The notes: generated by a model from the sequence alone, not told the origin. Counted from the stretch's first letter, positions 2 through 28,435 are shown. The stretch: 32,000 nt of DNA from Ferroglobus placidus DSM 10642 (GCF_000025505.1 NC_013849.1:1740001-1772000); one strand, 5' to 3'. Numbers and translations: made by a program.

Positions 2-427
2 CTGAAAATGGATTCTCTTAAAGTTGAAGGTGTGACAGCTTTCGTCGACACGAACTACAAAGGTTTGGCTAAAGCTGCGATAAAAGCTTTGAGTAAGTAC
101 GACCTCGTCGTTCTTCACACTGAAGGAATAGATGAAGCTGGACATGAAGGTGACGTGGAGCTGAAGGTTGAGGCTATAGAGCTTTACGACGAGAAAATCG
201 TCGGATACATAATAGACAGAATAGATCTCGAAGACACTAAGATCATGCTTCTTCCCGACCACCCTACTCCGATAAAGGTGAGAACCCACGTGGCTGAGCC
301 GGTGCCCGTGGCTATTTACTGCGAAAGAAAGGATGACGTGAAGAGATACAGCGAAAAAGATTGCAGAAGAGGAAAACTTGGACTTGTAAACGCTACGGAG
401 CTAATAAAAATAATGAAAAGGGTTTAA
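2..427 (+). CDS. apgM: 2,3-bisphosphoglycerate-independent phosphoglycerate mutase (archaeal ApgM type), C-terminal part; the 5' end lies outside the window
   Basis: The frame is open to the window edge. Motifs 'VVLHTEGIDEAGHEGD' and 'LLPDHPTP' are typical of the archaeal cofactor-independent PGM / metalloenzyme superfamily. Confidence 0.8.
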   Translation: MKMDSLKVEGVTAFVDTNYKGLAKAAIKALSKYDLVVLHTEGIDEAGHEGDVELKVEAIELYDEKIVGYIIDRIDLEDTKIMLLPDHPTPIKVRTHVAEPVPVAIYCERKDDVKRYSEKDCRRGKLGLVNATELIKIMKRV

Positions 428-873
428 ACTCTTCTCAGCTCCACGAGAGTTAGTTTTTTACCGTTTTTGCAATCGACGTTACCCCCTATAACCTTCTCGA
501 CGACGAAAGCATCGTTTTCGAACTCTATAGGATTGCAGAGGTTGTAATAAACGCAGCTTACGTCCGAGCAATTTCCTTCTATGGATATCTTCATTCCCTC
601 CACAGCCATTTTTGGCTCCACCGCTACTATTAGGGGAACTTCGACCACTTCAACCGCCACAACTCCCTCGTCGTGCAACGGGCACGGATGGACATCTCCG
701 TTCCGTAATCCGACGATCTTGTACTTACCCCCTTTTTTAAGCTTCAAACAAACCTTATTGATCTTGCAATTTTCACACTCCTTTCCACCACCGAGATACG
801 TGAATTCAACTCCAATTTCAGCCCAATCTTTACCGCATACGGTAATTATTTTTTGAGCGTCCATCAGCACCAC
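424..873 (-). CDS. UPF0179-family conserved archaeal Cys-rich protein
   Basis: 149-aa ORF with 'GGGKECENCKINKVCLKLKKGGKYKIVGLR...HPCPLHDEGVVAVEV', which matches my recollection of the UPF0179 family. It overlaps the apgM stop by 4 nt in convergent orientation. Confidence 0.65.
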   Translation of the reverse strand: MVLMDAQKIITVCGKDWAEIGVEFTYLGGGKECENCKINKVCLKLKKGGKYKIVGLRNGDVHPCPLHDEGVVAVEVVEVPLIVAVEPKMAVEGMKISIEGNCSDVSCVYYNLCNPIEFENDAFVVEKVIGGNVDCKNGKKLTLVELRRV

Positions 874-15405: not shown

Positions 15406-15984
15406 ATGCTGCTGCGAACACCTTTAAGGGAGGAGGATTTGCTAAAGCTTGAGGTGGGAGAAGCTGTTTACATTTCCGGAGAAATAATAACTGCAAGAGA
15501 CGCGGCACACGTGAGAATTCTCGAGTTTTTTGAAAGAGGAGAGAAGCTACCTTTTGAGCTGAACCGCTCGGTCGTTTACCACTGCGGACCGATAATAAAA
15601 AAGAATCACGAGTTCAAAGTCATCTCAGCAGGTCCGACAACTTCTGCGAGAATGAACCCCATGACTCCGAAAATTCTCGAAAAAGTGGACTGCTTGGCTA
15701 TAGTTGGAAAAGGCGGAATGAGTGACGAAGTAATCGAAGCTTTAAAGGGGAAGGGAGTTTACCTCGCTTATCCGGGTGGAGCGGGAGCTTTGGCAGCGAA
15801 AGCAATAAAGAGGGTGAAAGCGGTTTACTGGGAAGATCTTGGAATGCCGGAGGCAGTGTGGGTTTTCGAGGTCGAAAACTTCGGACCGTGCATAGTCGGA
15901 ATTGACGCTAAAGGAAACAGCATATACAAAAAAGTTGAGAAAGCCGTCGAAGAGAACTTCAGAAAAATTATATCTCAGCTATGA
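15406..15984 (+). CDS. Class I fumarate hydratase, beta (C-terminal) subunit
   Basis: '[11 protein letters not shown]', 'YHCGP' and 'AGPTTSARM' motifs. Confidence 0.85.
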
Positions 15985-16378
15985 GTCCGTCTATCATTCC
16001 TTTCACGTCTACTGGCGAAGCTCTCTTCCAGAAGTAGTAAAAGACGCTCTCGCACCAGTCGACAACTTCCTTGTTTTCGCTTCGAAACATCGGTGAGTAC
16101 GTGTGGTAGTATTGGAAGTAGACGAGTTTACCGTCGAGAACTCCGAGTAATAAAGGCGTGTCGTAAACTCTGATTTCTATCTTATCCCTAACTATTTTCA
16201 GTTCTTTTTTACTCAAGTCCATGTCGATCAGTACTTGCCTTATCGTTTCGAGTCTGTCTTTTAAAGTGTCTCTGCTCGAAATAACCTTCTCGGAAGCTCC
16301 CTGAAGGTTTAAATTCACCATTAACTTGTATATGTCGTAGTTAATTATTCTGTCAATGTACAATCCGTACTCCCTCAC
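15968..16378 (-). CDS. C-terminal half of a DUF1724-type regulator (separate ORF, GTG start)
   Basis: The C-terminal '[16 protein letters not shown]' resembles the conserved end of DUF1724/FilR1-type regulators. It begins 1 nt after the stop of the upstream wHTH ORF, in another frame. Confidence 0.5.
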
Positions 16379-16379
16379 T

Positions 16380-16781
16380 TTAGAAAAGGTCTTCGAGACC
16401 CTTCATTACTCCATCTAAGAACTCGAATTTTTCTGAAAATCTGAGCACGAGAGGAAATCCGTGCTTTAAGTACGGAGGAAGCATTTTTAAGAATTCTTCC
16501 GCTTTTTTTATCTCTTCTTCGAACTCGAAAGATTCGAGAAGGTTTTCGAAAGTCGTGAGGATCAGATCTCCGTAGGAGCTGATCTCGTAAACTTCTCCTC
16601 GCTTTCTGATCATCTCAAGCTTTTCCAGTCTGCTTAACGCTCTCGAAACTGTAGACTTCGGTGCTTTTAACTCTTCTACAATTTCAGAAAACTTGCACTT
16701 CTTTTTAGACAGCAGTTCGAGAATCTGATACCTCCACGGGTTGAGACACTCTTTTATCAGTTCAAAGCATTTCTCCCTCAC
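16380..16781 (-). CDS. ArsR-like winged-HTH protein (N-terminal half of a DUF1724-type regulator)
   Basis: 'RYQILELLSKKKCKFSEIVEELKAPKSTVSRALSRLEKLEMIRKRGEVYEIS'. A TATA-like 'TTTTATAAAT' lies upstream on the minus strand. Confidence 0.7.
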   Translation of the reverse strand: MREKCFELIKECLNPWRYQILELLSKKKCKFSEIVEELKAPKSTVSRALSRLEKLEMIRKRGEVYEISSYGDLILTTFENLLESFEFEEEIKKAEEFLKMLPPYLKHGFPLVLRFSEKFEFLDGVMKGLEDLF

Positions 16782-17131
16782 ATCGACATCTCTTACGCTC
16801 TAAATTTATAAAATTTTTTTAAAAGACTAACTGAGTAATCGAATAGTTAAAGTTTCGGCGATAATTTTTGCGATAGCGCCTACCTCAAATTTGCTCTGAA
16901 TTTCACGAGATTACACATAAACGATTGTTTATATGTCGCTTTAAAGTTGTTTGCGGTTGAAGTTCTTGGTATAAAATTCGATCTCGCTGTAGTTAAGTTG
17001 ACAACTACATCCTGAGCGTAAACTTTTTATGCCACTTTGTCACTTTGATACACAATTACAAAGAGGTGGTAAAAATGGATGAAAAAGAGAAGCTGAAGGA
17101 TCCGAAGATCTTCGCTCCAACGTAACGGAGC

Positions 17132-17353
17132 TCAGCTAACTTCCCCTCCGAACTTATAACCAATTTTTTCAATCTTTTCAGCTATTTTATCGACGTTTAC
17201 AAGTTCGTCGTCAAATTTAACTCTCGCAACTCCCTCCTCTAACTTCACTTCAACCTCTTTGACCCCTTCTAACGACCTCAATGCGTTTTCAACAGCTTTT
17301 GCGCAGCCAGCGCAACTCATACCTTCAACCCTTACAATTTTTTCAACTATCAT
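17132..17353 (-). CDS. copZ: Heavy-metal-associated (HMA) copper chaperone
   Basis: 'GMSCAGCAKAVENAL' MxCxxC motif. The ATG at 17353 gives the canonical ~73-aa HMA domain; the track ORF extends to 17398. Confidence 0.8.
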   Translation of the reverse strand: MIVEKIVRVEGMSCAGCAKAVENALRSLEGVKEVEVKLEEGVARVKFDDELVNVDKIAEKIEKIGYKFGGEVS

Positions 17354-17432
17354 ATCCCAGTCTTTTCCTTCCGACGAGAAATACTTCACCGCTAACAAAT
17401 TGTTAAACCGGTAGTGTTTTCTTTAGAAACTA

Positions 17433-18089
17433 ATGCTTTCTTCCATGGAAGTGGACGTCGTTAAATTTAAAAGGCCTAAAAAGCACAACGCGCTCGATTT
17501 AGAGCATTTGAAAGAAATCTACGAGGATTTCGAGTCTTGCAAGAATGCGGTGGTGATTTACGGAGAGCCGAGCTTTTGCTCAGGCATAGATCTCGATTAC
17601 TTCAGAGAAGCTGAAGAGGATGAAATTGTAGAATTTGCGGAACTCGCCAACTCGCTGATTTTGAAAATCTGCTCCCATCCGAAGCCGGTTGTTGCGTTCG
17701 TAAAGGGGTATGCGATTGGGGCTGGGTTCAGCATAGCTTTAGCCTGCGATTCGATAATCGCTGACGAGAATGCAGTATTTTCAACGGGTTTTGCAAAACT
17801 TGGAATCGCTCCAGACATGGGCGTTTCATACTTGCTACCGAGAGTTGTTGGATTAAAAAAAGCGCTTTACCTCCTCATGAGTGCGGAGAGGATTACAGCG
17901 GAGAAAGCTTACGAGTTGGGGATTGTTCAAAGTTTTGGAGAGCTTGAGGATGCTATCAAGGTTGCAAGAGAGCTCAACGGAAATTCGGTTAAGTACATTA
18001 AAGAACTCGTTTATTCTGGACTGAAAGAGCACATAGAAAAGGAAAAAACTCTTGCGTTAAAGTCGATTGGGGAGATTAGAGGGAAATGA
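17433..18089 (+). CDS. Enoyl-CoA hydratase/isomerase (crotonase) family protein, short form
   Basis: 'FCSGIDL' and 'GYAIGAGFSIALACD' oxyanion-hole motifs. Confidence 0.8.
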   Translation: MLSSMEVDVVKFKRPKKHNALDLEHLKEIYEDFESCKNAVVIYGEPSFCSGIDLDYFREAEEDEIVEFAELANSLILKICSHPKPVVAFVKGYAIGAGFSIALACDSIIADENAVFSTGFAKLGIAPDMGVSYLLPRVVGLKKALYLLMSAERITAEKAYELGIVQSFGELEDAIKVARELNGNSVKYIKELVYSGLKEHIEKEKTLALKSIGEIRGK

Positions 18090-18120
18090 TTGATTAACGC
18101 TTTAAAATAAAGGATAAAGG

Positions 18121-18504
18121 TTAGTCATAGTCGCAGGAAACGACGGGAATGCTCACTTCGATCTCATCGTAGGGAACGACAGGAACCTTTCTTCTCCTCT
18201 TACCTTTTTTCTCTTCCACGAATTTGACGAGTCCGAGCATTTCGAGAATTTCCAGATCCTTGATCACGTTCCTCCTGTTCCTCCCCAACAACTTAGCCAG
18301 TTCGTAAACGCTTTTCGGATTCTTCTCTTTTATCACGTGCAGAATCTTCAACCTTTCCGGAGTCAGAATTTTTCTGAGCGCTTCGTAACTCTCGAAAACG
18401 ATTCTCTCGAACTCCACATCCTCTCCTTCATCGATTCTCCTCGCTACCTCCAAAAGTTCCTCCCTACTATCTCTCCTCCCGATCTCAATCCTCAACTTTA
18501 CCAT
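18121..18504 (-). CDS. HTH DNA-binding protein, putative antitoxin partner
   Basis: 'LTPERLKILHVIKEKNPKSVYELAKLLGRNRRNVIKDLEILEMLGLVKF' is a wHTH. The ATG at 18504 overlaps the 3' end of the upstream toxin-like frame. Confidence 0.6.
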   Translation of the reverse strand: MVKLRIEIGRRDSREELLEVARRIDEGEDVEFERIVFESYEALRKILTPERLKILHVIKEKNPKSVYELAKLLGRNRRNVIKDLEILEMLGLVKFVEEKKGKRRRKVPVVPYDEIEVSIPVVSCDYD

Positions 18505-18799
18505 ACAGCACCTCCTCCACGATTTTAACATCCTCGAAGAACCTCTCAATCAGCTTTTCGACGCTTTCAAACTCTATTCCCTCCTCTTTATCGAAGAAGT
18601 GTCTGTGGTGTCCTTATCCCCTTTCGTTGTCGTAGCCGAGAACTCTCCTGTAGCTTTCGCCTTCAACGTGAACGTAAGCCATCGAGTACTTCACACCTCG
18701 GGAAAATCCTCGGACTTCGGAACCCTTCAAATATTGATCCGAATAATGTCCCCATGATCGTTGACCTCCTTGTAATCCACGAGCAATTTTGCCATTCAA
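18485..18799 (-). pseudogene. DUF6516-like putative toxin gene interrupted by an in-frame TAA
   Basis: The frame reads '...KYSMAYVHVEGESYRRVLGYDNERG*GHHRHFFDKEEGIEFESVEKLIERFFEDV...'. The stop (18614..18616) sits between the 'YDN' and 'HHRH' halves of the family motif, and the reading frame continues for 42 more codons. Confidence 0.5.
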
Positions 18800-18853
18800 T
18801 ATGTGTTATGTAAGCACACATATTTAAAGCTATCGAGTTTAGGCAGCTCCCCC

Positions 18854-18892
18854 TCGTTATCACCTTAGAACTCGCTAAGGTTTTGGTGCAAA
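18854..18892. repeat. Copy 1 of a perfect 39-bp direct repeat (TCGTTATCACCTTAGAACTCGCTAAGGTTTTGGTGCAAA)
   Basis: Identical to 20196..20234. It contains the hairpin ACCTTAG-aactcg-CTAAGGT followed by TTT. Confidence 0.95.
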
Positions 18893-18925
18893 CCTTTTTA
18901 TTCTTAAAAAAGGGTAAGAGAGGAT

Positions 18926-19930
18926 TTGTGGAGGAAATTGAAGCAAATTGCTGAATCTCTGAACGCCAACATTTCAGATCTACTCGAAACGAAGATTATC
19001 GAGCTAATAGCAGTTTACGAATCGTTTTTGGGAACGGGCCGGGAGGGATTTGAACCCCCGACCGCGGGATTAAGAGTCCGTCAGAGCTTCGTTTCCTTTG
19101 ACCTCCGTGAATTTTACTCCAAACACGAATCGGAGTTCAGAGAATGGCTCTACGGTAGAATGTCCAAGAAATCCGCTGATCAGTATTTGAGCGCCATAAA
19201 AAGGTATTTACCTCACGGAGTTAGCGAACCGAAAGACCTCGACCGTTTAGTGACGAAAACCAAGTACCTCCCCTTAGGAATAAGGAATTTCTTAAACTTC
19301 CTCGAAGATCAGTACTACATGGACAACCTTGGGGGATTCAGCTTCGCCATATGGAGGAAGCACTTACCGACGAAAACCGGAAACAAGAAAGGAGAAAAGA
19401 TCTTCTTGACCGATAAGGACGTCGTGAAATGCTTTAAGCTGATAAAAGAAAAGTGGAACGACGAAGTAACGATAAACCTCTACAAACTCCTCGTATTCTC
19501 GGGGATAAGACTTGAACATGCTTACAGACTCCTCGAAAGCTTCGATAAACGAAAACTGATAATAGAGGGTAAAGTAGCCATGTATCCGATCGAGGAAATT
19601 ACGAAAGGACATAAGAAGGGTTACTTTGCTTTCCTACCGGCGGAATTTGCCAGAAAGTTGGAAAAATATGACATGATGAAACTCGCAGCCTACAAAAGCA
19701 GATTAACTCCTAAACAATGGAAGCCACCGGTTGACAGTCCGGTTTCCCCGATTAGAATTAGAGCGTGGTTCCAGAACTTCGCCATCGAGCATGGAGTGAA
19801 GACCGAAGCTCTTCGCTTCATTGTCGGACATTCCCCGGCAACCGTCGGAGAAGCTCACTACTACAACCTCAAGAAGATCGCTAAGGAGGAGTACAAGAAG
19901 ATCGTGGACAAGTTCCCAATACCACCTTGA
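18926..19930 (+). CDS. int: SSV-type tyrosine recombinase; chimeric ORF of a foreign int(N)-like remnant, attL and int(C) of the resident element
   Basis: 334-aa ORF with a TTG start. The C-terminal 'IRIRAWFQNF...LRFIVGHSPATVGEAHYY' is a tyrosine-recombinase catalytic region. Codons 36-52 are the tRNA-derived att sequence 'GTGREGFEPPTAGLRV'. Confidence 0.8.
   Translation: MWRKLKQIAESLNANISDLLETKIIELIAVYESFLGTGREGFEPPTAGLRVRQSFVSFDLREFYSKHESEFREWLYGRMSKKSADQYLSAIKRYLPHGVSEPKDLDRLVTKTKYLPLGIRNFLNFLEDQYYMDNLGGFSFAIWRKHLPTKTGNKKGEKIFLTDKDVVKCFKLIKEKWNDEVTINLYKLLVFSGIRLEHAYRLLESFDKRKLIIEGKVAMYPIEEITKGHKKGYFAFLPAEFARKLEKYDMMKLAAYKSRLTPKQWKPPVDSPVSPIRIRAWFQNFAIEHGVKTEALRFIVGHSPATVGEAHYYNLKKIAKEEYKKIVDKFPIPP
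19031..19079. repeat. attL: 49-bp copy of the tRNA-Lys 3' part
   Basis: Base-for-base identical to 27663..27711 (GGAACGGGCCGGGAGGGATTTGAACCCCCGACCGCGGGATTAAGAGTCC). Confidence 0.95.
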
Positions 19931-20195
19931 GATTCAAGCTTCCGTTCATTCCTCACAACCAAGAGTTTGAGCTTATTGATCTGTTGATATACGAGGCTAA
20001 GAGGTGGTGGACATATGCAAGCTTCATCACAGTCTTTTTGAGGTCCAATGGCAGTTCCTACGATGAAAACGGTATACCGCAAAACAAGGACTCGAGTCCT
20101 GAGACAAACAGTATACCATTTCTTCCACCAAATCTCAACGAGAAAACCAGAGGAAAACACGCGAACTGCCCTACCTTTTTCCCTTTGTTACCCCT

Positions 20196-20234
20196 TCGTT
20201 ATCACCTTAGAACTCGCTAAGGTTTTGGTGCAAA
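20196..20234. repeat. Copy 2 of the perfect 39-bp direct repeat
   Basis: Identical to 18854..18892. It lies 266 nt downstream of the int stop. Confidence 0.95.
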
Positions 20235-20538
20235 ACTCGACTCTGATCAATATCGATAAACGTGCATGTTGAAAAATATAGATAAATCCATACATATATG
20301 CCGAGAGTCGGAACTAATCTACGAAAATATAATAATAGGCTTAAATATTTTGCAAATTGGCATAAAGGCTCGAATCGGTAAAGCTTTTAACGTTCAGGCT
20401 ATAATAAGCTATTGAACATAAAAGCTATTGAATAAAAATTATAAAATTCTTTTTATATTATTCAACTCTGCGATAAATTTTTAAGAATCTGGCTCTAATG
20501 TTTAATGATCTTGTGTTTGGCAAGGAGGTGAGAACCGG

Positions 20539-20799
20539 GTGTTCGGTAGGTTGAAGCTTGCCTGGAGAATATACAAAGCTTACATGCAGTTCGTCAAGGA
20601 GACCAAGGGTGAAATGACGCTCGTGGACTGGATCAAAGGAGTCATCATACTTTCGGTGCTCGGAGTCGGTGTCGGCTTGCCGATCGTGATAAAGACGATT
20701 CAGAGCGTGAACATCACAGACCCAACGACGTCGCTCGTCGTGAACTTCATTCCAGCTATCGTTGCCGTGGCTTTGCTTCTCGGCTACCTCGGGAGATAG
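20539..20799 (+). CDS. Small two-helix membrane protein, candidate spindle-virus-type major capsid protein
   Basis: GTG start 8 nt after AAGGAGGTGA. Two hydrophobic helices ('GVIILSVLGVGVGLPIVI' and 'LVVNFIPAIVAVALLLGYL') flank the polar loop 'KTIQSVNITDPTTS', which holds an N-x-T sequon. It is the only plus-strand gene in this part of the element. Confidence 0.6.
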   Translation: MFGRLKLAWRIYKAYMQFVKETKGEMTLVDWIKGVIILSVLGVGVGLPIVIKTIQSVNITDPTTSLVVNFIPAIVAVALLLGYLGR

Positions 20800-20835
20800 A
20801 AAAAGCGGCGATTGCAGAGGGCTTGAAGCTTTAAC

Positions 20836-20851
20836 TTCTTTTCTCTTTTTT
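20836..20851 (+). terminator. Oligo-T tract (TTCTTTTCTCTTTTTT) downstream of the 86-aa gene
   Basis: A T-rich run about 35 nt after the stop. Archaeal termination typically uses oligo-T. Confidence 0.35.
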
Positions 20852-20957
20852 GTGCCGGTTGATAATATATTAAATTGAGGAAATATTCTGCAGATCTGCC
20901 TATCAATTCAATAAAAATATTAAAAACCTCGAAGTATTATGCGATTTTGCAACTTTG

Positions 20958-21200
20958 TCAAACCACCTCTCTCTCTTTCTCCCTCTTCCTTAGATGCCGT
21001 CCGTTGAATTTAGCTTCGATCAGATTCAAGAGCTTCTCCACAGCCTCGATAACCTTTTCCGGCTCTTCGCCGTCGAATCTTACGGAGATCTCTACTCCTC
21101 CACCATCCTCATTAATTCCGGCTTTGAGAACGACTTCCCGAACTGGATAATCCTCCTGAACAATCTCCTCAGCTTCTTCACCGGTTTCCTCCCTCCTCAT
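20958..21200 (-). CDS. Hypothetical acidic protein (80 aa), last gene of the element's minus-strand operon
   Basis: Its start overlaps the upstream stop by 4 nt. The opposite-strand ORFs are S/L-rich shadows. Confidence 0.45.
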   Translation of the reverse strand: MRREETGEEAEEIVQEDYPVREVVLKAGINEDGGGVEISVRFDGEEPEKVIEAVEKLLNLIEAKFNGRHLRKREKEREVV

Positions 21201-21364
21201 AGATATCCCCTCCTCCTTAGAAACTCCTCAAGAGCTAAGTTGATAGCGTCGGAGAGCTTCAAGCCGTTTCTTTTGATCGCATTCACAAGCTCTCTTTCAA
21301 TCCTCACCGTAGTTTTTACTCTGTCTTTTTTCTCCAGCTTGAGGAGTCTTTTTTTAGTTATCAT
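21197..21364 (-). CDS. Ribbon-helix-helix (CopG/Arc-like) protein
   Basis: 'VKTTVRIERELVNAIKRNGLKLSDAINLALEEFLRRRG' has the beta-strand plus two-helix RHH pattern. The ATG at 21364 overlaps the upstream stop (ATGA). Confidence 0.6.
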   Translation of the reverse strand: MITKKRLLKLEKKDRVKTTVRIERELVNAIKRNGLKLSDAINLALEEFLRRRGYL

Positions 21365-21555
21365 GCTTGAGCTTCTTTCAACCTCCTCATAACCGTCCAC
21401 TTTGAAACTTCGTAACCTAACTGGGTGAGCTTCCACGCTATCATCTCGTAACTGTAACCTTTAGCTCTCAACTCCTTAGCTAAGGAGATGGGGAAAGTTT
21501 TCGGCTTCCTTCCTCCTCTCTTGGTTAGAAGAATCTCAGCTTTCATTTTCACCAC
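21361..21555 (-). CDS. Small HTH protein (resolvase/Hin-like HTH)
   Basis: 'GRKPKTFPISLAKELRAKGYSYEMIAWKLTQLGYEVSKWTVMRRLKE'. Confidence 0.6.
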   Translation of the reverse strand: MVKMKAEILLTKRGGRKPKTFPISLAKELRAKGYSYEMIAWKLTQLGYEVSKWTVMRRLKEAQA

Positions 21556-21566
21556 CTCTAAAAAAA

Positions 21567-21794
21567 TTAGGGAGAAGAGGTTTCCTCTATTTCTTTGAGC
21601 TTCTTGTTAAACTCTTCAACTCTGGGAATGAACGCTTTTAAGCTTTTCAAATAGTCTAAGTCACTTTTCACGTTCTCTATGATGCACTCCTCTAGATATT
21701 CGGTAAAGTCTTTCCCTGCCCATTCGCAAAACTCTTTTACCAACTCGTACAGCTCTTTCGGAATTTCCAGCTCCACCTTCACCCTTTCTTCCAT
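21567..21794 (-). CDS. Hypothetical acidic helical protein (75 aa)
   Basis: An ORF within the co-directional operon. No motif recognised. Confidence 0.45.
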   Translation of the reverse strand: MEERVKVELEIPKELYELVKEFCEWAGKDFTEYLEECIIENVKSDLDYLKSLKAFIPRVEEFNKKLKEIEETSSP

Positions 21795-21811
21795 ACTACC
21801 ACCCCAAAGAA

Positions 21812-22018
21812 TTAAAGGTGAAGTTCGGCAGTGCTCAAAGCCTTCTTAAGCTCCTCGAAGCTCTCTGAATCCATTTCTAAGGTTATGCTGTTTCCGATTC
21901 TCAAAACTGCTTTGTCGCTGAATTTCTCGACGCTCACGCCCCCTTCATATACATAGACGCCGATCTCCGCCAAACCATCTTTTCCGCTCACTTCCAACTT
22001 CGCCTTAACCCATCTCAT
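21812..22018 (-). CDS. Hypothetical protein (68 aa)
   Basis: An ORF within the operon whose start overlaps the upstream stop by 4 nt. Confidence 0.45.
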   Translation of the reverse strand: MRWVKAKLEVSGKDGLAEIGVYVYEGGVSVEKFSDKAVLRIGNSITLEMDSESFEELKKALSTAELHL

Positions 22019-22236
22019 ACCTTCTCACCTCCTCTCCTTTTTCTTCCTCCCCTTTTAACGGGAGGAGCGTAATCCGGGCATATTTTAGCACGTCCGCAAC
22101 TCACGACAACTTTCCAACGGAAGCAGTAAACGTAACCGGGTGTTTCCGCTTTCGAAGATTCCAAACAGTTAAAGCAATTCTGTTTTGGCTTCTTCTCCCT
22201 CTTCTGCTTCCGAACAACCTTAACGGGAGAGATCAA
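22015..22236 (-). CDS. Basic Cys-rich (zinc-finger-like) protein (73 aa)
   Basis: 'CFNC...C...C...C' flanked by K/R-rich tails ('RKQKREKKPKQ' and 'KRGGRKRRGGEK'). Confidence 0.5.
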   Translation of the reverse strand: MISPVKVVRKQKREKKPKQNCFNCLESSKAETPGYVYCFRWKVVVSCGRAKICPDYAPPVKRGGRKRRGGEKV

Positions 22237-22242
22237 TGAAGC

Positions 22243-22482
22243 TCACCCACTAAGGTCGTATTCGATTTCTTCCGCTTCCTCCACCTTAGGTTTTGATTCC
22301 CGGACCCAGAAAGCACCTACTTCTTTCCATCCGTCTCCTTCCCTGATCACCAATCGAAAATCAGGCTGTGATTTGCTCGATTTCTTCTCGTTCTTGAAGA
22401 GAAACGCCTCCCTCTCCCCCAAAACTCCGAAATCCAGATATCCGGCTAAAAACTTCTTACCGTTTCCTCCCACCTCTACCAC
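22243..22482 (-). CDS. DUF736-like protein
   Basis: 'FLFKNEKKSSKSQPDFRLVIREGDGWKEVGAFWVRES' follows the DUF736 pattern (N..K.s..PDyRi....g.e.GAaW.k.s) as I recall it. The start is more likely the GTG at 22473, 6 nt after GGAGGTG. Confidence 0.45.
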   Translation of the reverse strand: MVEVGGNGKKFLAGYLDFGVLGEREAFLFKNEKKSSKSQPDFRLVIREGDGWKEVGAFWVRESKPKVEEAEEIEYDLSG

Positions 22483-22903
22483 CTCCTAAGGGGTTTTCCT
22501 CCCTTGAGGGAGGAGCTTGAGAGATGAAACGGGAGAAAATATACTCTCCGAACTCTTCAACGCTTCCGGAGAAGACGGGGAGAAGTTGAGAAGCCTTCAA
22601 AAAGGGAGAGGATTCAACTTTTTGAGAAGTGTCATACTCATAGAGTTTGACCTGATCTCCTTCCCTTTCGATGTAAAATAGGGGGACCCTCAAGCATCGA
22701 GCTATTTTTTTGAGAGTTACAGCTTGATAGCCTCTTATCCTCAGATGACCGTTCTTTTCCTCGAATATTGCCACTATTCTTGGACCTACTTCCAAAACTG
22801 CGTCGATGTTTGTTATGACGACCTTTCCGGATCTATCTTTGTAAGGCTGAAGAGCTTCCCAGAGGGTGTTTTCGATGTATTGACCGCAGTGAGGACACTT
22901 CAT
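22457..22903 (-). CDS. Zinc-ribbon protein with a possible PD-(D/E)xK nuclease-like core
   Basis: N-terminal 'CPHCGQ', then 'ITNIDAVLEVGPRIVAIFEEKNG' (D...E-x-K spacing), and a Gly/Arg-rich tail. Its ATG shares one nucleotide with the prim-pol stop. Confidence 0.5.
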   Translation of the reverse strand: MKCPHCGQYIENTLWEALQPYKDRSGKVVITNIDAVLEVGPRIVAIFEEKNGHLRIRGYQAVTLKKIARCLRVPLFYIEREGDQVKLYEYDTSQKVESSPFLKASQLLPVFSGSVEEFGEYIFSRFISQAPPSREENPLGGGRGGRKR

Positions 22904-25551
22904 CAGCTCATCACCTCGGACATGTCCCAGCTCTCGTAATCTCCCTTAGAATCGAATTCTTCCTCCTCTGAACCGGTAAGGAAGTTGACGAATTCGGAAA
23001 ATGAGACAACAGCAGCCCAAGGAGTCTTATTTCCAATTCTAACCTTTCCATATCTCCACCCGAACCTCTCAGCTAAGGATTTGAGGGAATCGACCGGCAG
23101 ATCTTTGAGCACTTTCAAAACCGAGTTTGTTATCACGACGTCCTCTCCTTTCAGGAAAGCCCACGGAATGAAGTTCTCCTTTAGCAAAGCCTCAAGCCTA
23201 TACCTCAAGTCCGGAGCGTAAGAAGTTCCGTTCTCCAACACAACCTCAACCTTAGAAACATGCTTCGAATACCTGGAGTTGATGTCTTCAAGGAGCTTCG
23301 ACCTGATTTCTTCGTTGATTATCTCGGTTATTTCCTCCAAACTTTCTCCTTTATGCTCTTCTTCGATCCACTCCGGAATTTCAAGCTCAGCAAACTCGAA
23401 AGCCTCTCTAAGGAGTTGAGAGGAAAGTTCCCTCCAGTCTTTTTTGAGGAGTTCCGGATTTTCGGAAATTCTCCTGAAAACGAAATACCCTAAAAACCTC
23501 AGGTCGTAAATCCTCGGTAAAACTTCCCTTTCGAACTCTCTAGCCTTATCCTCCTTCACCCTGTCGGAAATCGTGAAGAGAATTCCGATGAACCTCCTTA
23601 GCAAAGCGTCATCAGCCGGGTAAGCTTTGTTTGTCGTGAAAATCATCGGAGACAAAGCCGGCTCTTCGACGTAAACTCCCTGAACGTATCTTCCTCTTGC
23701 GAAGAGCGTTTCAATCGAGGATTTCAGAACTTCCCTGATCGAGTCCTTGGCTAAAACTTCAGCAACCTCGTTTATCAAAACCGGGAAAGTGCTTTCGGAA
23801 ACTACTTTCCCGAATCTTGGAACCGTGTCGATATGGCTTCCTCCCTTCTCCTCCGGAGGGAGATTCCAGATCGCTCTTATTATCTTCCCTAAGGTGGATT
23901 TGCCGGTGGAAGCCGAACCGTGTAGTAAAAGCCAAGGAAAGTGGATTCCGTAAGTTCCCCTTATCTGTTTGATCGCATAAGAGAAAGGAGCGATTATTCC
24001 CCATTTTATGACGGTGGTGAACCTTTCGGCTAAGTGCTTATACCACTCCTCCCTTAGCTCTCTAAGGAGGAGAAGAGCTTTCCTGAGGTCTTCCTTCGTG
24101 AATTTTTCAGCGTTCCACTTTACAGCTTTTATTTCTCCGTCGATGTAGTAGAAACCGGGTTTTTCGAGCTCTCTTCTTATTTCAGCTTTCCCGTTCCTTA
24201 TGAAAGCGATGATCAAAGAGGAGAGAGCATCATCAACCAATCTCTTGTGCTTAACGACAGCTTCAGCTTTAAGCCTTGAAGCTATCGTTTCGAGATCTGC
24301 CGGACCTATTGTTTTCTTCAATAATCCATCGAATTCTATTTCGAACTTCCTGACTCCTCCGAGGGGATCCTCGTAAACGACAACCCTAACAGGACAGCAT
24401 TCAGCTATCAATTCTTTGTAAACAATTCCTCCGTTCTTTGAATCTTCGTAAGCTCTGGCAATTATCCCCTTTCTCGGATTTGCGACGTAGTAGAGCTTTC
24501 TTGAGAAGTCAATCAAGCTGAAAATGGAGTCTCGGAAGGGGGAAGATCTTCCCAGCTTCTCCTCAAGCCTCCTTATCAGTTCTAAGGATTTTTCCTCTCC
24601 GAAGAGCTTTTCCGCTATTTCTTGTAAACCTGTCTTACCTTTCAACTCTTCTTCACTCGGTGGATTTCCCCTTAGTCCGTAGGTCCTATCCAAAACATAG
24701 ATTCTGAGGTCTCTTTCCTCATCCTTTTCCGAAAGCAGATCGACGATTTTCTTCGCCGATTTGTAACTTATTCCGGCTTTCCTCAACCAGCCCGTGAGGA
24801 AGAGAATGATGTAATTCCTGAATCCAGGTCGATAAATCGGCTTGAGCAAATTGACGATTTCCAGAATTTCGGATTCGGAAAGCTCTCTTTCATCCTTGGA
24901 CGTCAAAGAATCTTTGGCTGAAATTTCTTCTGTTAATCCCTCTTCTGGAAGAGTCTCGTTCCTCTCCAGAATTCTAAGGAGGGTGAGGTATTCCTCCCAG
25001 CTCAATTCAGCTATCTTTTCAGGTTTGTTAACGAAACGATATTGTTTCCCGGAGGGATGAGGGGAAGGAGGAGCGACGACGAAACCTCCTTCGGCTCTTA
25101 TGTCGATCCCTTCTCTTATTCCTATCCTGTTGTGGAAGAGTTTAGGATCCGGATCCTTAACCCTTAGATAATAGTGGAAACCTTTCCCGGTCTCAACTAC
25201 CCAGGTGTTGATGAACTTCTCGTATAGGTTGCTATCCGATTCGTAAAGTTCGGCTAAGAAGTCGGATAAAACCTCTCTGTTGTCGAAATCGATCACTGCC
25301 AAATTTCCGGAAACGCTTCCGGTTACGATGGCTATTCCGATCTTGTTTCCCTTCCTTATGGCTTCAAACTGCTCTGGATTTTCAAACCAGCTCCTAACCT
25401 CTTCTAAGGTGGGAGGAGAGAGCTGGTATTTCTTCCAGTCCACTAAAGCTGGCTTTCTCGATCTGCCATCGGGTAACCTGATTAAAGCGACGGGGATAAC
25501 CGAAAATCCTTCCCGGAGGTATTCCTCAGCAGCTTTTAATAACTCCTCCAT
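22903..25551 (-). CDS. Replication protein: bifunctional primase-polymerase (prim-pol) fused to an SF3/D5-like helicase (pRN1 ORF904-like)
   Basis: 882 aa. N-terminal 'GFSVIPV', 'AVIDFDN', 'GFHYYLRV' and 'GIDIRAEGGFVVAPPSPHPSGKQYRF' are prim-pol motifs. It also has Walker A 'LLLHGSASTGKST' and Walker B-like 'FPVLINEV'. GGAGGT lies 9 nt upstream of the ATG. Confidence 0.9.
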   Translation of the reverse strand: MEELLKAAEEYLREGFSVIPVALIRLPDGRSRKPALVDWKKYQLSPPTLEEVRSWFENPEQFEAIRKGNKIGIAIVTGSVSGNLAVIDFDNREVLSDFLAELYESDSNLYEKFINTWVVETGKGFHYYLRVKDPDPKLFHNRIGIREGIDIRAEGGFVVAPPSPHPSGKQYRFVNKPEKIAELSWEEYLTLLRILERNETLPEEGLTEEISAKDSLTSKDERELSESEILEIVNLLKPIYRPGFRNYIILFLTGWLRKAGISYKSAKKIVDLLSEKDEERDLRIYVLDRTYGLRGNPPSEEELKGKTGLQEIAEKLFGEEKSLELIRRLEEKLGRSSPFRDSIFSLIDFSRKLYYVANPRKGIIARAYEDSKNGGIVYKELIAECCPVRVVVYEDPLGGVRKFEIEFDGLLKKTIGPADLETIASRLKAEAVVKHKRLVDDALSSLIIAFIRNGKAEIRRELEKPGFYYIDGEIKAVKWNAEKFTKEDLRKALLLLRELREEWYKHLAERFTTVIKWGIIAPFSYAIKQIRGTYGIHFPWLLLHGSASTGKSTLGKIIRAIWNLPPEEKGGSHIDTVPRFGKVVSESTFPVLINEVAEVLAKDSIREVLKSSIETLFARGRYVQGVYVEEPALSPMIFTTNKAYPADDALLRRFIGILFTISDRVKEDKAREFEREVLPRIYDLRFLGYFVFRRISENPELLKKDWRELSSQLLREAFEFAELEIPEWIEEEHKGESLEEITEIINEEIRSKLLEDINSRYSKHVSKVEVVLENGTSYAPDLRYRLEALLKENFIPWAFLKGEDVVITNSVLKVLKDLPVDSLKSLAERFGWRYGKVRIGNKTPWAAVVSFSEFVNFLTGSEEEEFDSKGDYESWDMSEVMS

Positions 25552-25711
25552 TCCTGATTACCTCCCTCAGTAAGCAGAATTCGGAGAGGAAGTAACCGCA
25601 AAGAGTAGAATCGGTTCGACAGATCGAGGGAAGATCCGATAACTTTATAACGGTGCATTTCCTCCTTTTCTTAGGGATCAGCACACTTCCAGGGGTTTGC
25701 GACCTTCTCAT
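25526..25711 (-). CDS. Hypothetical small Cys-containing ORF bridging the RHH and prim-pol genes
   Basis: It fills the 156-nt gap, and its start overlaps the RHH stop (ATGA). No motif, so it may not be translated. Confidence 0.3.
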   Translation of the reverse strand: MRRSQTPGSVLIPKKRRKCTVIKLSDLPSICRTDSTLCGYFLSEFCLLREVIRNGGVIKSC

Positions 25712-25917
25712 CCTTGATCCTCCCTTATTTTTTCAAAATCGACTCCGAGAAACATGGCATAGTGTTCGATTGCTCTTCTTAGAATCTCAGAAACGGATTG
25801 ATGGGCTATAGGCTTCGAATATTCTCCTCTAAGGATGAGTTCGAGGAGTTTAGCGTGTTCTGGGTAAACTGTGGCTGTGATCTGGATTTTGTTCCACTTG
25901 GTTTGGATCCCGACCAT
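25708..25917 (-). CDS. Ribbon-helix-helix (CopG-like) regulator upstream of the replication gene
   Basis: 'IQITATVYPEHAKLLELILRGEYSKPIAHQSVSEILRRAIEHY' fits the RHH pattern. GGTGA lies 7 nt upstream of the ATG at 25917; the track starts at the GTG at 25923. Confidence 0.65.
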   Translation of the reverse strand: MVGIQTKWNKIQITATVYPEHAKLLELILRGEYSKPIAHQSVSEILRRAIEHYAMFLGVDFEKIREDQG

Positions 25918-25932
25918 TTTCACTCACCTATT

Positions 25933-25999
25933 GAAGTTACTCACACTTTGAAGAAATTTGGATAACAATATTTAAATACTTTTCGATGTGAGTAACTTC
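25933..25999. promoter_or_regulatory. Divergent promoter/operator: a 13-bp perfect inverted repeat (GAAGTTACTCACA / TGTGAGTAACTTC) flanking the TATA box TTTAAATA (25971..25978)
   Basis: The repeat arms are at 25933..25945 and 25987..25999. The TATA box lies 22 nt upstream of the ATG at 26000. Confidence 0.55.
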
Positions 26000-26572
26000 A
26001 TGAGTCGAGAAACTATAGGGTTGATTGTTGAAGCTTTATCAGAAGGTCCTAGGGGGTGGAAAGAGTTAAAGGAAAGAACTGGTCTTTCAGATGGGACTTT
26101 AGCCAAGTATTTAAAAAAATTAATTGAAGAAGGTCTCATATCAGAAGAGATTGATAAAAAAGATCGAAGAAAGAAAATCTACAAGCTAATACCCACTGAA
26201 AAAACGTTTGAGTTATCTTTGCAAAGAGTTATTGCTAAACTATTTTTGATTTATTTAAGGTCAGTTTTGGAAGAAAATGAAAAGATGGAAGACCTTGAGA
26301 GAAAAACTGGTAAAATTGTTTTGATCTGCCTCTTTGGAGGCGATAGAGGTAAGGAAATCTGCAGAATTATGGTGGAAAACTTCCAAGAATTTATGAAGGA
26401 CTTAGAGAGCGATATTCCTGAACGTTACAATAGAGAGTTTAATGAATTATGGGAAGACTTCTCTAAAGAAATAATGGAGTTGTTTAAATCTGAACTCAGA
26501 ATAGATCCCAAACTTCTCGATCCTAAGAAGTATTGGATAAGGTTCGACATAGATACTACTGAAGATGACTAA
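26000..26572 (+). CDS. Winged-HTH (MarR/ArsR-like) regulator with a C-terminal helical domain
   Basis: 'GPRGWKELKERTGLSDGTLAKYLKKLIEEGLISEEIDKKDRRKKIYKLIP'. The ATG at 26000 is favoured as a leaderless start; the track begins at the GTG at 25988. Confidence 0.7.
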   Translation: MSRETIGLIVEALSEGPRGWKELKERTGLSDGTLAKYLKKLIEEGLISEEIDKKDRRKKIYKLIPTEKTFELSLQRVIAKLFLIYLRSVLEENEKMEDLERKTGKIVLICLFGGDRGKEICRIMVENFQEFMKDLESDIPERYNREFNELWEDFSKEIMELFKSELRIDPKLLDPKKYWIRFDIDTTEDD

Positions 26573-26614
26573 AATCCATTTCAAAAATTTTGTATAAAAT
26601 AATTTTTTAAATCT

Positions 26615-26892
26615 GTTCCACGGGAATAACAGAGCTTTATTCCGAAAACTAAGGGAGAATATTGCCTAGATTTTAAAACAACCTATGTTCCGCAATATGG
26701 AACCTTACGGAACAAGGTTATTTTCCCTCAGTTTTCGATTTGGAGTGATTTGATGGGTTTTTTGATGTTGTGTTCCGCACCTTATTAGAGGATACCCCAA
26801 ACTTTTTGATGAGTTCACAATTCTTTACGGAACAGTGGAACAATGGAACACTAAGAATGGGTGGAACCTACGGAACAACGGAACATTGGAAC
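26615..26892. repeat. Iteron field: 9 direct GGAAC(A) copies and 3 inverted GTTCC copies in a non-coding 436-bp gap
   Basis: Direct GGAAC starts at 26699, 26709, 26829, 26837, 26845, 26863, 26872, 26880 and 26888. Inverted GTTCC starts at 26615, 26687 and 26772. TACGGAACA occurs three times and TGTTCCGCA twice. Confidence 0.85.
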
Positions 26893-27008
26893 ATTTTAAT
26901 TCATATTTTATTAAATTAAAAAGAAAGAAACTCTCTCTCATCCCTTAGTGTTCGCATGCCAAACTTGAAATCCCAAACCCTTTTAACATTCTTGATGAAT
27001 TAAGAAAC

Positions 27009-27227
27009 ATGCAAGAAGCGAAGGTGAAGGAAGTCATCTTCCTTGTCGAGGAGACGGATGAAGGATTTACGGCGAGGGCTTTAGATTACTCGATCTACAC
27101 TGAAGCCGATACGCTTGATGAGCTAAAGGAAATGATCAAGGATGCCGTGAAATGCCATTTTGATGAAGAGGAGAGACCGAGAATCATCCGACTTCACATC
27201 GTTAAGCAAGAGGTTTTGACGTTATGA
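27009..27227 (+). CDS. hicB: HicB-like antitoxin
   Basis: 'VIFLVEETDEGFTARALDYSIYTEADTLDELKEMIKDAVKCHF' matches the HicB N-terminal fold pattern. It overlaps hicA by 4 nt. Confidence 0.7.
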   Translation: MQEAKVKEVIFLVEETDEGFTARALDYSIYTEADTLDELKEMIKDAVKCHFDEEERPRIIRLHIVKQEVLTL

Positions 27228-27466
27228 AGCTTCCGAGAGACATTAGCGGTCTGGAACTTGCGAAACTCCTTAGGAAATTCGGTTACGAAATTACAAGACA
27301 GACTGGAAGCCACATTCGTCTTACTACCCGTTTGAAGGGAGAACATCACATCACGATCCCGAAACATAGAAATCTCAAACCGGGAACGTTAAACGCCATT
27401 TTGAAGGATGTTGCCGATCATTTAAGAATCGATAAAAAGGAACTGATACGGGAATTGTTCGGATAG
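27224..27466 (+). CDS. hicA: HicA-family mRNA interferase toxin
   Basis: 'LELAKLLRKFGYEITRQTGSHIRLTT...HHITIPKHRNLKPGTLNAILKDV' carries the HicA/YcfA signature, including GSH and P.H..L..GTL..IL. Confidence 0.8.
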   Translation: MKLPRDISGLELAKLLRKFGYEITRQTGSHIRLTTRLKGEHHITIPKHRNLKPGTLNAILKDVADHLRIDKKELIRELFG

Positions 27467-27503
27467 TCGCAACTTTTATTTTTATTCACACGTATGAATC
27501 AAT

Positions 27504-27662
27504 ATGCCCCGTCAAAGTCAGGACAAGGTGAAATTAACATTAACCATAAATAAAAACGTTCTCGAACGAGCTAAGGAATTAATCCCCAACCTTAGCGCCT
27601 TCGTCGAAATGAAGCTTCGAGAATACGTAATTTTGGCAGAACACGGGTTATTCGACGAAAAT
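27504..27662 (+). CDS. int: int(N): N-terminal fragment of the element's partitioned integrase (RHH-like), reading into attR and the tRNA
   Basis: 'VKLTLTINKNVLERAKELIPNLSAFVEMKLREYV', then the att-encoded 'GTGREGFEPPTAGLRV'. Codon 54 starts exactly at att, the same phase as at attL. Confidence 0.75.
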
Positions 27663-27711
27663 GGAACGGGCCGGGAGGGATTTGAACCCCCGACCGCGGG
27701 ATTAAGAGTCC
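27663..27711. repeat. attR: 49-bp repeat (4 nt plus the 3'-terminal 45 nt of tRNA-Lys)
   Basis: Identical to 19031..19079. Confidence 0.95.
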
Positions 27712-27740
27712 CGCGCTCTACCTGGCTAAGCTACCGGCCC
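27667..27740 (-). tRNA. tRNA-Lys (anticodon CUU), 74 nt, no encoded CCA
   Basis: The hand-folded cloverleaf is GGGCCGG / GCTT-GAGC / CGGGA-CTCTTAA-TCCCG / GGGGG-TTCAAAT-CCCTC / CCGGCCC-G. The anticodon loop CT-CTT-AA gives CUU. Confidence 0.9.
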
Positions 27741-27798
27741 ACTAAAAACTAAGCTCGTTTCTCGATTTATCAAGTTTTTGGTAATTGAAAAAGCCCTG

Positions 27799-28435
27799 TC
27801 AACTTAACCACCTCAGATGATTGTAATAGAGCATGAAGAGTTTGCAGAATAGATTCCAGTTTTTAATTGGATTTTTAGTGGAAATCGAACAGAAGAACAG
27901 CTTAACTCTCTGTTTAAATGAGCTGAACGTCGCTTCAACCAGACTTCTCTTTCCGAAAGGTTTCATGCTTAAATTCCAAGCCTAAACTTTCTATTGCTTT
28001 TCTCAGCCATGGTGCTTTGTCTATCAAAAACTTGGGTTCGTTCTCGCAGTAATTAAGAACTTCTTTGACGAAAGACCTTGCTGTAAGAATGTTTCTCGTC
28101 GTGTAAACCCTCATTAAAATCAGCTCGTTCCTTTCAACGTCTACCGCGGCAAAAATGTAGAACTTCTTTTTGTTAGCTTTGACAATCGTTTCATCTATTG
28201 CAACAAGATTTCTCCGCTTCTTCTCAGTAGAAATTGGTAACTTCTCTTCAAACTTCTTTATCCATTTCCACACAGCCGTATGGGAGACCGGACGAAACTC
28301 CGAGAGAATTTTAACCGTTCTCCTCGTCGAAGAAGTTTGAACGTAAGTGGCTACGCCAAGAATTCTAATGTCGTTCGGAACTCTTTCCCTCTCAAACAAC
28401 TCAAGCTCCTCTATAAGCTTCTTCAACTTCATCAA
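27799..28435 (-). pseudogene. IS6-family DDE transposase, frameshifted
   Basis: 'LVAIDETIVKANKKKFYIFAAVDVERNELI...FLIDKAPWLRKAIESLGLEFKHETF', then a stop. Another frame continues 'GKRSLVEATFSSFKQRVKLFF...', the conserved E-containing C-terminus. The frame switch is near 27950..27956. I could not define terminal inverted repeats. Confidence 0.7.

Follow-up and report, generated by a model that had tools for sequence, protein, structure and literature searches.

Introduction

Self-partitioning integrases have long been known from SSV1, pXQ1, pTN3 and pT26-2, and pXQ1 is reportedly an integrated pRN-family plasmid of Saccharolobus. Here we describe an element with an integrase of this kind in Ferroglobus placidus DSM 10642. 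The DNA analysed is a 32,000-nt stretch of the chromosome of this strain (the window; all coordinates are counted within it). Positions 19031–27711 very probably represent a cryptic plasmid of 8,632 bp in its integrated form, with the two parts of a split integrase gene at its ends and one end in a tRNA-Lys(CUU) gene.

The pT26-2 class of these integrases was surveyed by Badel et al. (2020; PMC7253208), who reported 14 of them in Archaeoglobales, in half of the closed genomes and with nine tRNA targets. Int(pT26-2) performs both integration and excision in vitro without cofactors, and the same has been shown for Int(pTN3) and Int(SSV2) (PMC7253208). A 2021 review also names Archaeoglobales as hosts of such integrases. 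In F. placidus itself, the open reading frame (ORF) at 18938–19930 is identical to ADC66173.1, called 'SSV1 integrase, C-fragment' in GenBank, and the split gene was thus already recognized by the genome annotators in 2010. The occurrence of gene partition in a genome of Archaeoglobus-like content, to which a first-pass annotation of this DNA had drawn attention, was therefore known beforehand.

The mechanism is already documented in Archaeoglobales, and the element is a new, or at least undescribed, example of it. Ferroglobus is not named in the main text of Badel et al. (2020; PMC7253208) or in the 2021 review, and the F. placidus genome paper (PMC3236036) makes no mention of the element. 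That paper states that the strain was deposited 'containing plasmid XY', yet that the genome has 'no plasmids'. The phrase may be an unedited template or a hint of a plasmid once seen, possibly the free element; we give it little weight.

A perfect 49-bp repeat bounds the element at tRNA-Lys(CUU)

The element is bounded by a perfect 49-bp direct repeat, the two copies of which (attL, 19031–19079; attR, 27663–27711) lie 8,632 bp apart from start to start, in exact agreement with the first-pass annotation. A 28-nt core of this attachment (att) repeat occurs twice in the window and not once in 100 shuffled versions, and no third copy of the repeat was found in the window at three or fewer mismatches. 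attR lies inside an intact tRNA-Lys(CUU) gene on the minus strand (27666–27741 by ARAGORN; 27667–27740, 69 bits, by Rfam RF00005), the presumed target of integration. It is the sole tRNA predicted in the window, and the Rfam scan of the window gave no match apart from it. The repeat takes in the 3'-terminal 45–46 nt of the tRNA, beginning at the anticodon stem, and 3–4 nt past its end; the division into 45 nt and 4 nt proposed earlier holds to within 1 nt. attL has the 3' part of the tRNA only, and no tRNA is predicted there.

The repeat lies within the reading frame of a split integrase

Both att copies translate in one frame, as GTGREGFEPPTAGLRV. Joining 27504–27711 to 19080–19930 gives an open frame of 352 codons without interruption. 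Its first 53 codons, int(N), lie at 27504–27662 and residues 70–352, int(C) (283 codons), at 19080–19930, both on the plus strand. Translation thus bears out two earlier claims: that the repeat sits inside a recombinase frame on both sides in equal codon phase, and that excision would rebuild a 352-aa integrase. In the integrated state, the int(N) frame continues through att into the tRNA gene as far as 27752; a look-up of this 82-aa ORF found no matching entry on record. On the other side, the int(C) frame extends leftwards through attL into a 35-codon int(N)-like stump, N' (18926–19030, plus strand). N', att and int(C) together form a 334-aa ORF that keeps the whole core-binding and catalytic domains; RefSeq gives this longer form, starting at TTG 18926, as WP_048086629.1 'integrase'.

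The rebuilt protein is a tyrosine recombinase of the SSV/pT26-2 type in which the catalytic residues are kept. It matched the Pfam family PF16795, 'Archaeal phage integrase', over residues 177–347 (3e-39; 134.9 bits, with the cutoff at 27) and an integrase family of PHROGs (2e-36). The protein is 32% identical to t26-1p, the pT26-2 integrase, over 96% of its length, 30% identical to a Pyrococcus abyssi plasmid integrase and 24–27% identical to SSV integrases; in a sequence search of the PDB, the catalytic domain of SSV1 Int was the sole significant match (1e-5). The catalytic R..K..R..H..Y residues are conserved: R213, K248, R297 and H329-Y330 are invariant in an alignment of intact homologues, Int(pT26-2) and the SSV-RH integrase, and H320 is invariant too among the closer relatives. 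Y330 aligns with Y314 of SSV1, the proven nucleophile. The lysine of the SSV1-type KxxR motif is Ile294 here and Asn in pT26-2, and this position varies in the pT26-2 class.

An AlphaFold model of the rebuilt integrase (mean pLDDT 72) contains a disordered linker (residues 44–74) followed by a helical, core-binding-like domain (78–163) and the catalytic domain (181–342). At the N-terminus, residues 10–46 are modelled with low confidence as strand-helix-helix, which fits the borderline match of int(N) to the CcdA/ribbon-helix-helix (RHH) Pfam family (22.6 bits against a cutoff of 22.4). A hidden Markov model (HMM) built from related int(N) sequences of other loci (type A, below) matched int(N) at 2e-27. 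In a Foldseek search with the model, SSV1 Int structures (PDB 3VCF, 3UXU, 4DKS) ranked first, with TM scores of 0.79–0.83 for the catalytic fold and root-mean-square deviations of 2.4–3.2 Å, and XerA, XerH, lambda Int and IntI came next, aligned over both domains. The residues encoded by att (54–69, at codons 54–70) lie within the predicted linker. Partition therefore removes the small RHH-like domain only, and int(C) keeps both DNA-binding/catalytic domains.

The integrase thus resembles SSV1 Int in its PF16795 domain, its catalytic fold and its partition at an att in a tRNA gene. It differs in its low sequence identity and in the absence of the KxxR lysine, and it belongs to a plasmid-like element of Archaeoglobales, whereas SSV1 is a virus of Sulfolobales. 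With the pT26-2 class it shares an attP inside the integrase ORF, a target in the 3' part of a tRNA gene and int(N) and int(C) at the ends of the element.

Intact and split homologues use the same tRNA

Among 29 integrase homologues collected, many start with a tRNA-derived peptide, as expected for C-fragments, and several (P0006, P0012, P0013 and P0028) are uninterrupted. P0006, encoded on metagenomic contig L001, has 356 aa and is 53–59% identical to the F. placidus protein. Within its gene lies the same att, with 45/46 nt matching and the frame kept; this is the attP state predicted by the partition model. In contigs L002 and L003, int(C) (76% and 67% identical, respectively) comes straight after att. 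The att of all four loci derives from tRNA-Lys(CUU).

An exact-pattern scan with a 44-nt att was carried out on 185,579 species genomes, one genome per species. It returned 26 loci, all of them in Archaeoglobi assemblies, and 25 of these lie within a full tRNA-Lys(CUU). When the flanks were read in the att frame, a complete int(N) was found abutting tRNA-Lys(CUU) at six loci (L007, L009, L011, L014, L018 and L021), and truncated int(N) tails were found next to it at four or more (at least L004, L012, L020 and L026). The SSV-style partition suggested by the first-pass annotation is therefore supported by an intact, att-bearing homologue, by six int(N)–tRNA junctions and by the attL–int(C) arrangement in L002 and L003. 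A scan of a genome collection with the integrase found no relative, in a collection that evidently lacks F. placidus DSM 10642 itself.

Two types of int(N) share the tRNA-Lys att. Type A (MPRxxQDKVKLTLTINKN...NLSAF...) is found in F. placidus, L009/L030, L014, L018 and L002, and type B (RLHITL...WLK...NxSxF) in L001, L007, L011, L012 and L021. The two moieties of the integrase have different histories: between the L030 and F. placidus proteins, int(N) is 68% identical and int(C) 32–34%. Badel et al. (2020; PMC7253208) described this modular, hybrid pattern, and it is a further likeness to the pT26-2 class.

Taken by its features, the locus belongs with the SSV-type (class I, 'suicidal') integrases. 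An SSV1-type catalytic domain with the nucleophilic tyrosine and the conserved residues is present; attP lies inside the integrase ORF, both in the rebuilt frame and in the intact genes of L001 (P0006) and L030 (330 aa); and int(N) and int(C) lie at the ends of the element, beside direct att repeats of which one is in an intact tRNA gene.

Several loci represent stages of element decay. The int(N) tails at L004, L012, L020 and L026 span 10–35 codons and have no element attached. At L007 (4224–5691), int(N) and a frameshifted int(C) have outlasted the body of the element, which is deleted. At L002 (9741–9872), a truncated type-A int(N) lies directly upstream of att and int(C), and a 1-nt deletion in att shifts the frame.

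Two further observations were made at tRNA-Lys loci. Seven contigs of metagenome-assembled genomes (MAGs; L005, L010, L013, L017, L019, L027 and L028) begin or end within a few bases of att, as breaks in assembly would produce at sites where the integrated form is present together with a free or empty one. L023 and L029 carry an element of about 11.8 kb with the same tRNA-Lys att; in L023, an RHH-like ORF (413–514, minus strand) near att (342–385) reads toward att from the opposite strand, and the integrase gene may have the opposite orientation relative to the tRNA there.

The element carries the genes of a small replicon

The largest gene of the element (22903–25551, minus strand) encodes an 882-aa replicase with an N-terminal PrimPol domain (PF09250, 2e-29) and a C-terminal, helicase-like half. 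The protein is 36% identical to ORF909 of 'Hyperthermophilic Archaeal Virus 2' (HAV2), 33% identical over 96% to the protein of Sulfolobus neozealandicus pORA1 and 28.5% identical over 78% to that of pIT3. Its C-terminal half matches t26-22p of pT26-2 (28%). A large protein database contains 68 homologues, many of them 58–80% identical; they come from Archaeoglobi MAGs, metagenomes of hot environments and the A. profundus chromosome (P0048). Immediately downstream lies orf148 (22457–22903, minus strand), which encodes a conserved 148-aa backbone protein.

Putative regulators flank the replicase gene. Upstream are a 71-aa RHH-like ORF (25708–25923, minus strand), which is 74% identical in L047 and gave a weak CopG-like/RHH_1 match below the cutoff, and a 194-aa winged helix-turn-helix (wHTH) regulator (25988–26572, plus strand) with matches to HTH_27, HTH_5 and MarR. 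The latter matched PF05584, the PlrA family of Sulfolobus pRN regulators, only at the cutoff (20.8 bits). Downstream of orf148 is a block of seven small ORFs (20958–22482, minus strand; 80, 79, 64, 75, 68, 73 and 79 aa) with homologues in L030, L043, L044, L047 and L050. The block includes an HTH protein (21361–21555, minus strand; NCBIfam resolvase-HTH, 1e-8), an Arc/RHH-like protein (21567–21794, minus strand; PHROG Arc-like, 8e-4) and a Cys-rich protein (22015–22236, minus strand).

Between the wHTH gene and the ORF upstream of hicA, an AT-rich intergenic region (26600–26900; GC 0.34) contains 12 copies of GGAAC/GTTCC in 300 bp, against 0.7 expected (Poisson P ∼2e-11), some of them at 8-nt spacing. 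These iterons may mark an origin or a regulator-binding site. At the right end, HicA toxin is encoded at 27224–27466 (plus strand; HicA_toxin PF07927, 3e-15, 56.6 bits against a cutoff of 27). The 72-aa ORF that overlaps its start (27009–27227, plus strand) is a possible HicB-type antitoxin by position and overlap; it had no Pfam or NCBIfam match, and the HicB label is thus positional. Near the left end are a 47-nt hairpin motif, D3 (20191–20237, plus strand; core ACCTTAGAACNNGCTAAGGTTTTGGTGCAAA), and an 86-aa ORF (20539–20799, plus strand) with no PHROG or family match, in which two apparently hydrophobic segments suggest a small membrane protein.

Many small ORFs of the element have no match in Pfam, PHROGs or NCBIfam, as the first-pass annotation implied when it called most of the genes ORFans. 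About 10 of the element's proteins have relatives in related elements of Archaeoglobi assemblies, however, and to that extent the description does not hold.

The element compares with known plasmids as a replicon that shares a general plan and few genes. Like the free plasmids pORA1 and pIT3, and like pXQ1 and the pRN-family integrated plasmids, it is a small cryptic replicon with a PrimPol-helicase and RHH and wHTH regulators, and like the integrated pRN plasmids, including pXQ1, it combines an SSV-type partitioned integrase with insertion in a tRNA gene. It differs from the pRN family (pRN1, pRN2, pHEN7, pDL10 and pXQ1) in belonging to a different phylum, and the signature regulators of that family, PlrA (ORF80) and CopG (ORF56), are not demonstrable in it. 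Set against the ORF904-type replicase of the family, its PrimPol protein was matched by a pRN-size plasmid of Sulfolobus islandicus over 18% of the query at 27.6% identity, less well than by pORA1 and pIT3; with pORA1, the replicase is all that is shared. In searches with its integrase and replicase, similarity to the pT26-2 plasmid was limited to t26-1p and, for the replicase's C-terminal half, t26-22p. Judged by sequence similarity, the element is not a pT26-2-family plasmid, its replicase being closer to those of pORA1 and HAV2. It would be functionally analogous to pXQ1, yet is not demonstrably a member of either the pRN or the pT26-2 family, and it is best called an integrative cryptic plasmid.

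A model for integration and the present state of the element

These features lead us to propose the following model. The free form would be an 8,632-bp circle carrying one 352-aa integrase gene, with attP, 49 bp of the 3' part of tRNA-Lys(CUU), inside the int frame at the linker that would join the N-terminal RHH-like domain to the core-binding and catalytic domains. Recombination between attP and the tRNA gene (attB), catalysed by the element's own integrase, would insert the circle and regenerate an intact tRNA at attR. Integration would at the same time cut int, leaving the 53 codons of int(N) beside the tRNA and the 283 codons of int(C) 8.6 kb away at attL; excision would reverse the reaction and rebuild the gene. 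Replication would proceed via the PrimPol-helicase, with the iteron region, D3 or both as cis sites, and HicA with its possible partner would stabilize the element. Excision could still occur given a source of integrase, be it a related element, an episomal copy or the N'-att-int(C) ORF.

Three points weigh against this model. The circular form and the empty site are deduced from sequence. The integrase gene is split, with no full-length integrase in cis and no intact integrase gene in the window, and present-day mobility is therefore unproven. Finally, the HicB label is assigned by inference, as is what the iterons and D3 would do. The second point could mean that the element is a permanently trapped fossil, which lost the ability to excise when its integrase was split and is now decaying as chromosomal DNA. 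Split integrase halves have been described as inactive pseudogenes (Badel et al., 2020; PMC7253208), and decayed versions such as the frameshifted int(C) with deleted body at L007 and the int(N) tails of L004, L012, L020 and L026 are common. In F. placidus, the two att copies are identical (49/49), the integrase halves contain neither stop nor frameshift, the 882-aa rep and hicA ORFs are open and the catalytic residues are intact. The identity of the att copies and the open state of the integrase halves and rep make the insertion look recent and undecayed, and integrase could come in trans or from the in-frame N'-att-int(C) ORF. We therefore consider a trapped fossil to be rather unlikely, though the most serious of the alternatives.

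Understood as an undecayed integrated plasmid, the element cleanly illustrates, in a cultured strain of Archaeoglobales with a finished genome, a self-partitioning integrase of the SSV/pT26-2 type. It offers a cultured test bed for how 'suicidal' integrases persist, and might supply Archaeoglobales with a vector backbone and an integration system.

The element could instead be a provirus of pleolipovirus-like or fusellovirus-like kind. The integrase is 28–31% identical to those of the pleomorphic (pro)viruses of Archaeoglobus veneficus and A. profundus (31% at best) and 28% identical to the TPV1 integrase, the replicase has its 36% match in HAV2, orf148 resembles AvPV1_gp26 (33% identical) and the 86-aa ORF may encode a membrane protein. 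When all ORFs of the element of at least 40 aa were compared with the ApPV1 and AvPV1 genomes, including their structural genes, and with PHROGs, no virion gene was found: there was no VP3-like or VP4-like protein and no spike or capsid homologue. Only the integrase and orf148 match the Archaeoglobus pleolipo-proviruses. At 8.6 kb, the element is smaller than those viruses (14.7–21.6 kb), and its sister elements (below) share replication and regulation genes only. HAV2 is, to our knowledge, a metagenomic assembly with no demonstrated virion. A provirus is thus very unlikely, and the integrated plasmid remains the preferred reading.

A repeat arising by chance, by misassembly or by local duplication of the tRNA 3' end without site-specific recombination has little behind it beyond general possibility and the frequent breaks of metagenome contigs at the tRNA-Lys att, and it is effectively refuted: the source replicon is a finished chromosome of 2,196,266 bp (2.2 Mb), an independent Logan assembly (run SRR019238) contains ∼3.5 kb of the element's interior (window 27129–23674) with 99.94% identity, the repeat lies exactly where the two halves of one recombinase frame meet and the same architecture occurs in unrelated assemblies.

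Sister elements in Archaeoglobi assemblies

Contigs L030, L043, L044/L047 and L050 carry sister elements that share with the F. placidus element the replicase (58–80% identical), orf148 (36–71% identical in L030, L043, L044 and L047), several small ORFs and a type-A int(N). The F. placidus integrase is coupled to a small PrimPol plasmid backbone that is widespread in Archaeoglobi metagenomes. None of these elements is named or described in the sources searched, and IMG/VR scans with the replicase, the integrase alignment and D3 gave no match. The sister elements differ from the F. placidus element in their int(C) modules and in part in their targets: L030 is at tRNA-Lys, L043 at tRNA-Val and L044/L047 at tRNA-Ala(GGC). 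They also carry other cargo, namely TnpB, ParE and a nucleotidyltransferase. In L047 (7336–19370), a 45-bp perfect direct repeat at tRNA-Ala(GGC) bounds 11,990 bp, including ParE and the nucleotidyltransferase; the replicase is 80% identical, and a type-A int(N) is combined with an int(C) that has no detectable similarity to that of F. placidus.

In JALWDS010000008.1 (GCA_027036775.1; L030 1–10915 plus L009 1–1607), an apparent tandem array was found at tRNA-Lys(CUU). The order is att, an 8,724-bp unit (with TnpB and a PrimPol protein 59% identical to that of F. placidus), att inside the intact 330-aa integrase gene, and then 2,106 nt that match the unit's beginning exactly. The end of the unit recurs beside tRNA-Lys, and the overlapping parts are 100% identical. 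Badel et al. (2020; PMC7253208) state that tandems of elements with suicidal integrases were never observed, and an assembly path through a co-existing episome explains the array equally well.

A complete type-B int(N)-att-int(C) frame of 412 codons lies at L035 9887–11125, with an att derived from a different tRNA. The gene adjoins the host genes for carbamoyl-phosphate synthase and acetylglutamate kinase, and its int(N) is nearly identical to the one that L021 has at tRNA-Lys. The arrangement suggests that the target was switched and that the gene was rebuilt in chromosomal surroundings.

The left flank contains a probable relic of an earlier element

The DNA to the left of attL, beyond the region considered in the first-pass annotation, is not plain chromosome: a copy of D3 and the likely int(N) stump N' adjoin the element. 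The outer D3 (18849–18895, plus strand) is 96% identical to the copy inside the element (8e-15). In D3, a 7-bp hairpin whose loop varies precedes a TTTT run. Its core is invariant in L047 (15530–15560) and L050 (6746–6776), in which the replicase is ∼80% identical and the flanking non-coding DNA has diverged, and in 50 loci searched it was found nowhere beyond the F. placidus element and flank, L047 and L050. D3 is thus a family-specific cis element; origin, operator and terminator are candidate roles. A structured RNA was considered and rejected, as fold z-scores were unremarkable (–0.7 to +0.5).

Downstream of the outer D3, a TATA-like 9-mer (TTTTTATTC; 18894–18902, plus strand) lies 24 nt before TTG 18926, the start of N'. 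The same 9-mer is found 17 nt before the ATG of the resident int(N), at 27479–27487. N' aligns in register with the helices of type-A int(N), and pairwise alignments were equalled by shuffled sequences in 0/500 (L014), 2/500 (L018) and 9–12/500 (resident int(N), L009) trials. By profile HMM, N' was not significant among 924 six-frame segments, with E values of 7.8 (type A) and 56 (type B). A by-eye resemblance to type B (WLK...NISxF) had suggested a type-B remnant; this was discarded given the type-B E value, as only the type-A pairwise alignments were better than shuffles. We lean, with some reserve, towards homology of N' to int(N). On the evidence of D3, it is likely that the DNA abutting attL (18849–19030, plus strand; D3 copy, TATA-like box and N') is left over from an earlier, related element. 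The simplest account is that such an element at this tRNA decayed to its tRNA-proximal end and that the present element then entered the still-intact tRNA gene.

The int(N) tails at tRNA-Lys, L002, L035, the L030/L009 array and the relic at attL could together be read to mean that scars of earlier elements rebuild integrase genes and that the split of the integrase need not be final at this locus. On this reading, which we regard as improbable for the present, tRNA scars would re-arm newly integrated 'suicidal' elements for excision, if a hybrid such as the 334-aa ORF is expressed and active, and would yield hybrid integrases. The int(N) stumps, the hybrid ORF, D3 and the tandem array in the MAG all bear on the published model of hybrid-integrase formation.

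Further observations on the surroundings of the locus

None of the other tRNA-Lys loci share the F. placidus flanks, and synteny is therefore unable to define an ancestral empty site. Fumarase genes lie ∼3 kb to the left of attL in both F. placidus and L003, and the genes in between differ. In F. placidus, the stretch between the fumarase genes and the relic (15968–18549), in which GC dips to 0.39, encodes a 136-aa protein without assignment, an ArsR-type regulator, an HMA copper-chaperone-like protein, a short enoyl-CoA hydratase (218 aa) and a wHTH protein, and may be an older insertion. Immediately 5' of tRNA-Lys lies a further remnant of a mobile element, a truncated transposase of the IS6 family (27935–28435, minus strand; 166 of ∼202 aa; 113 bits, below the cutoff of 125).

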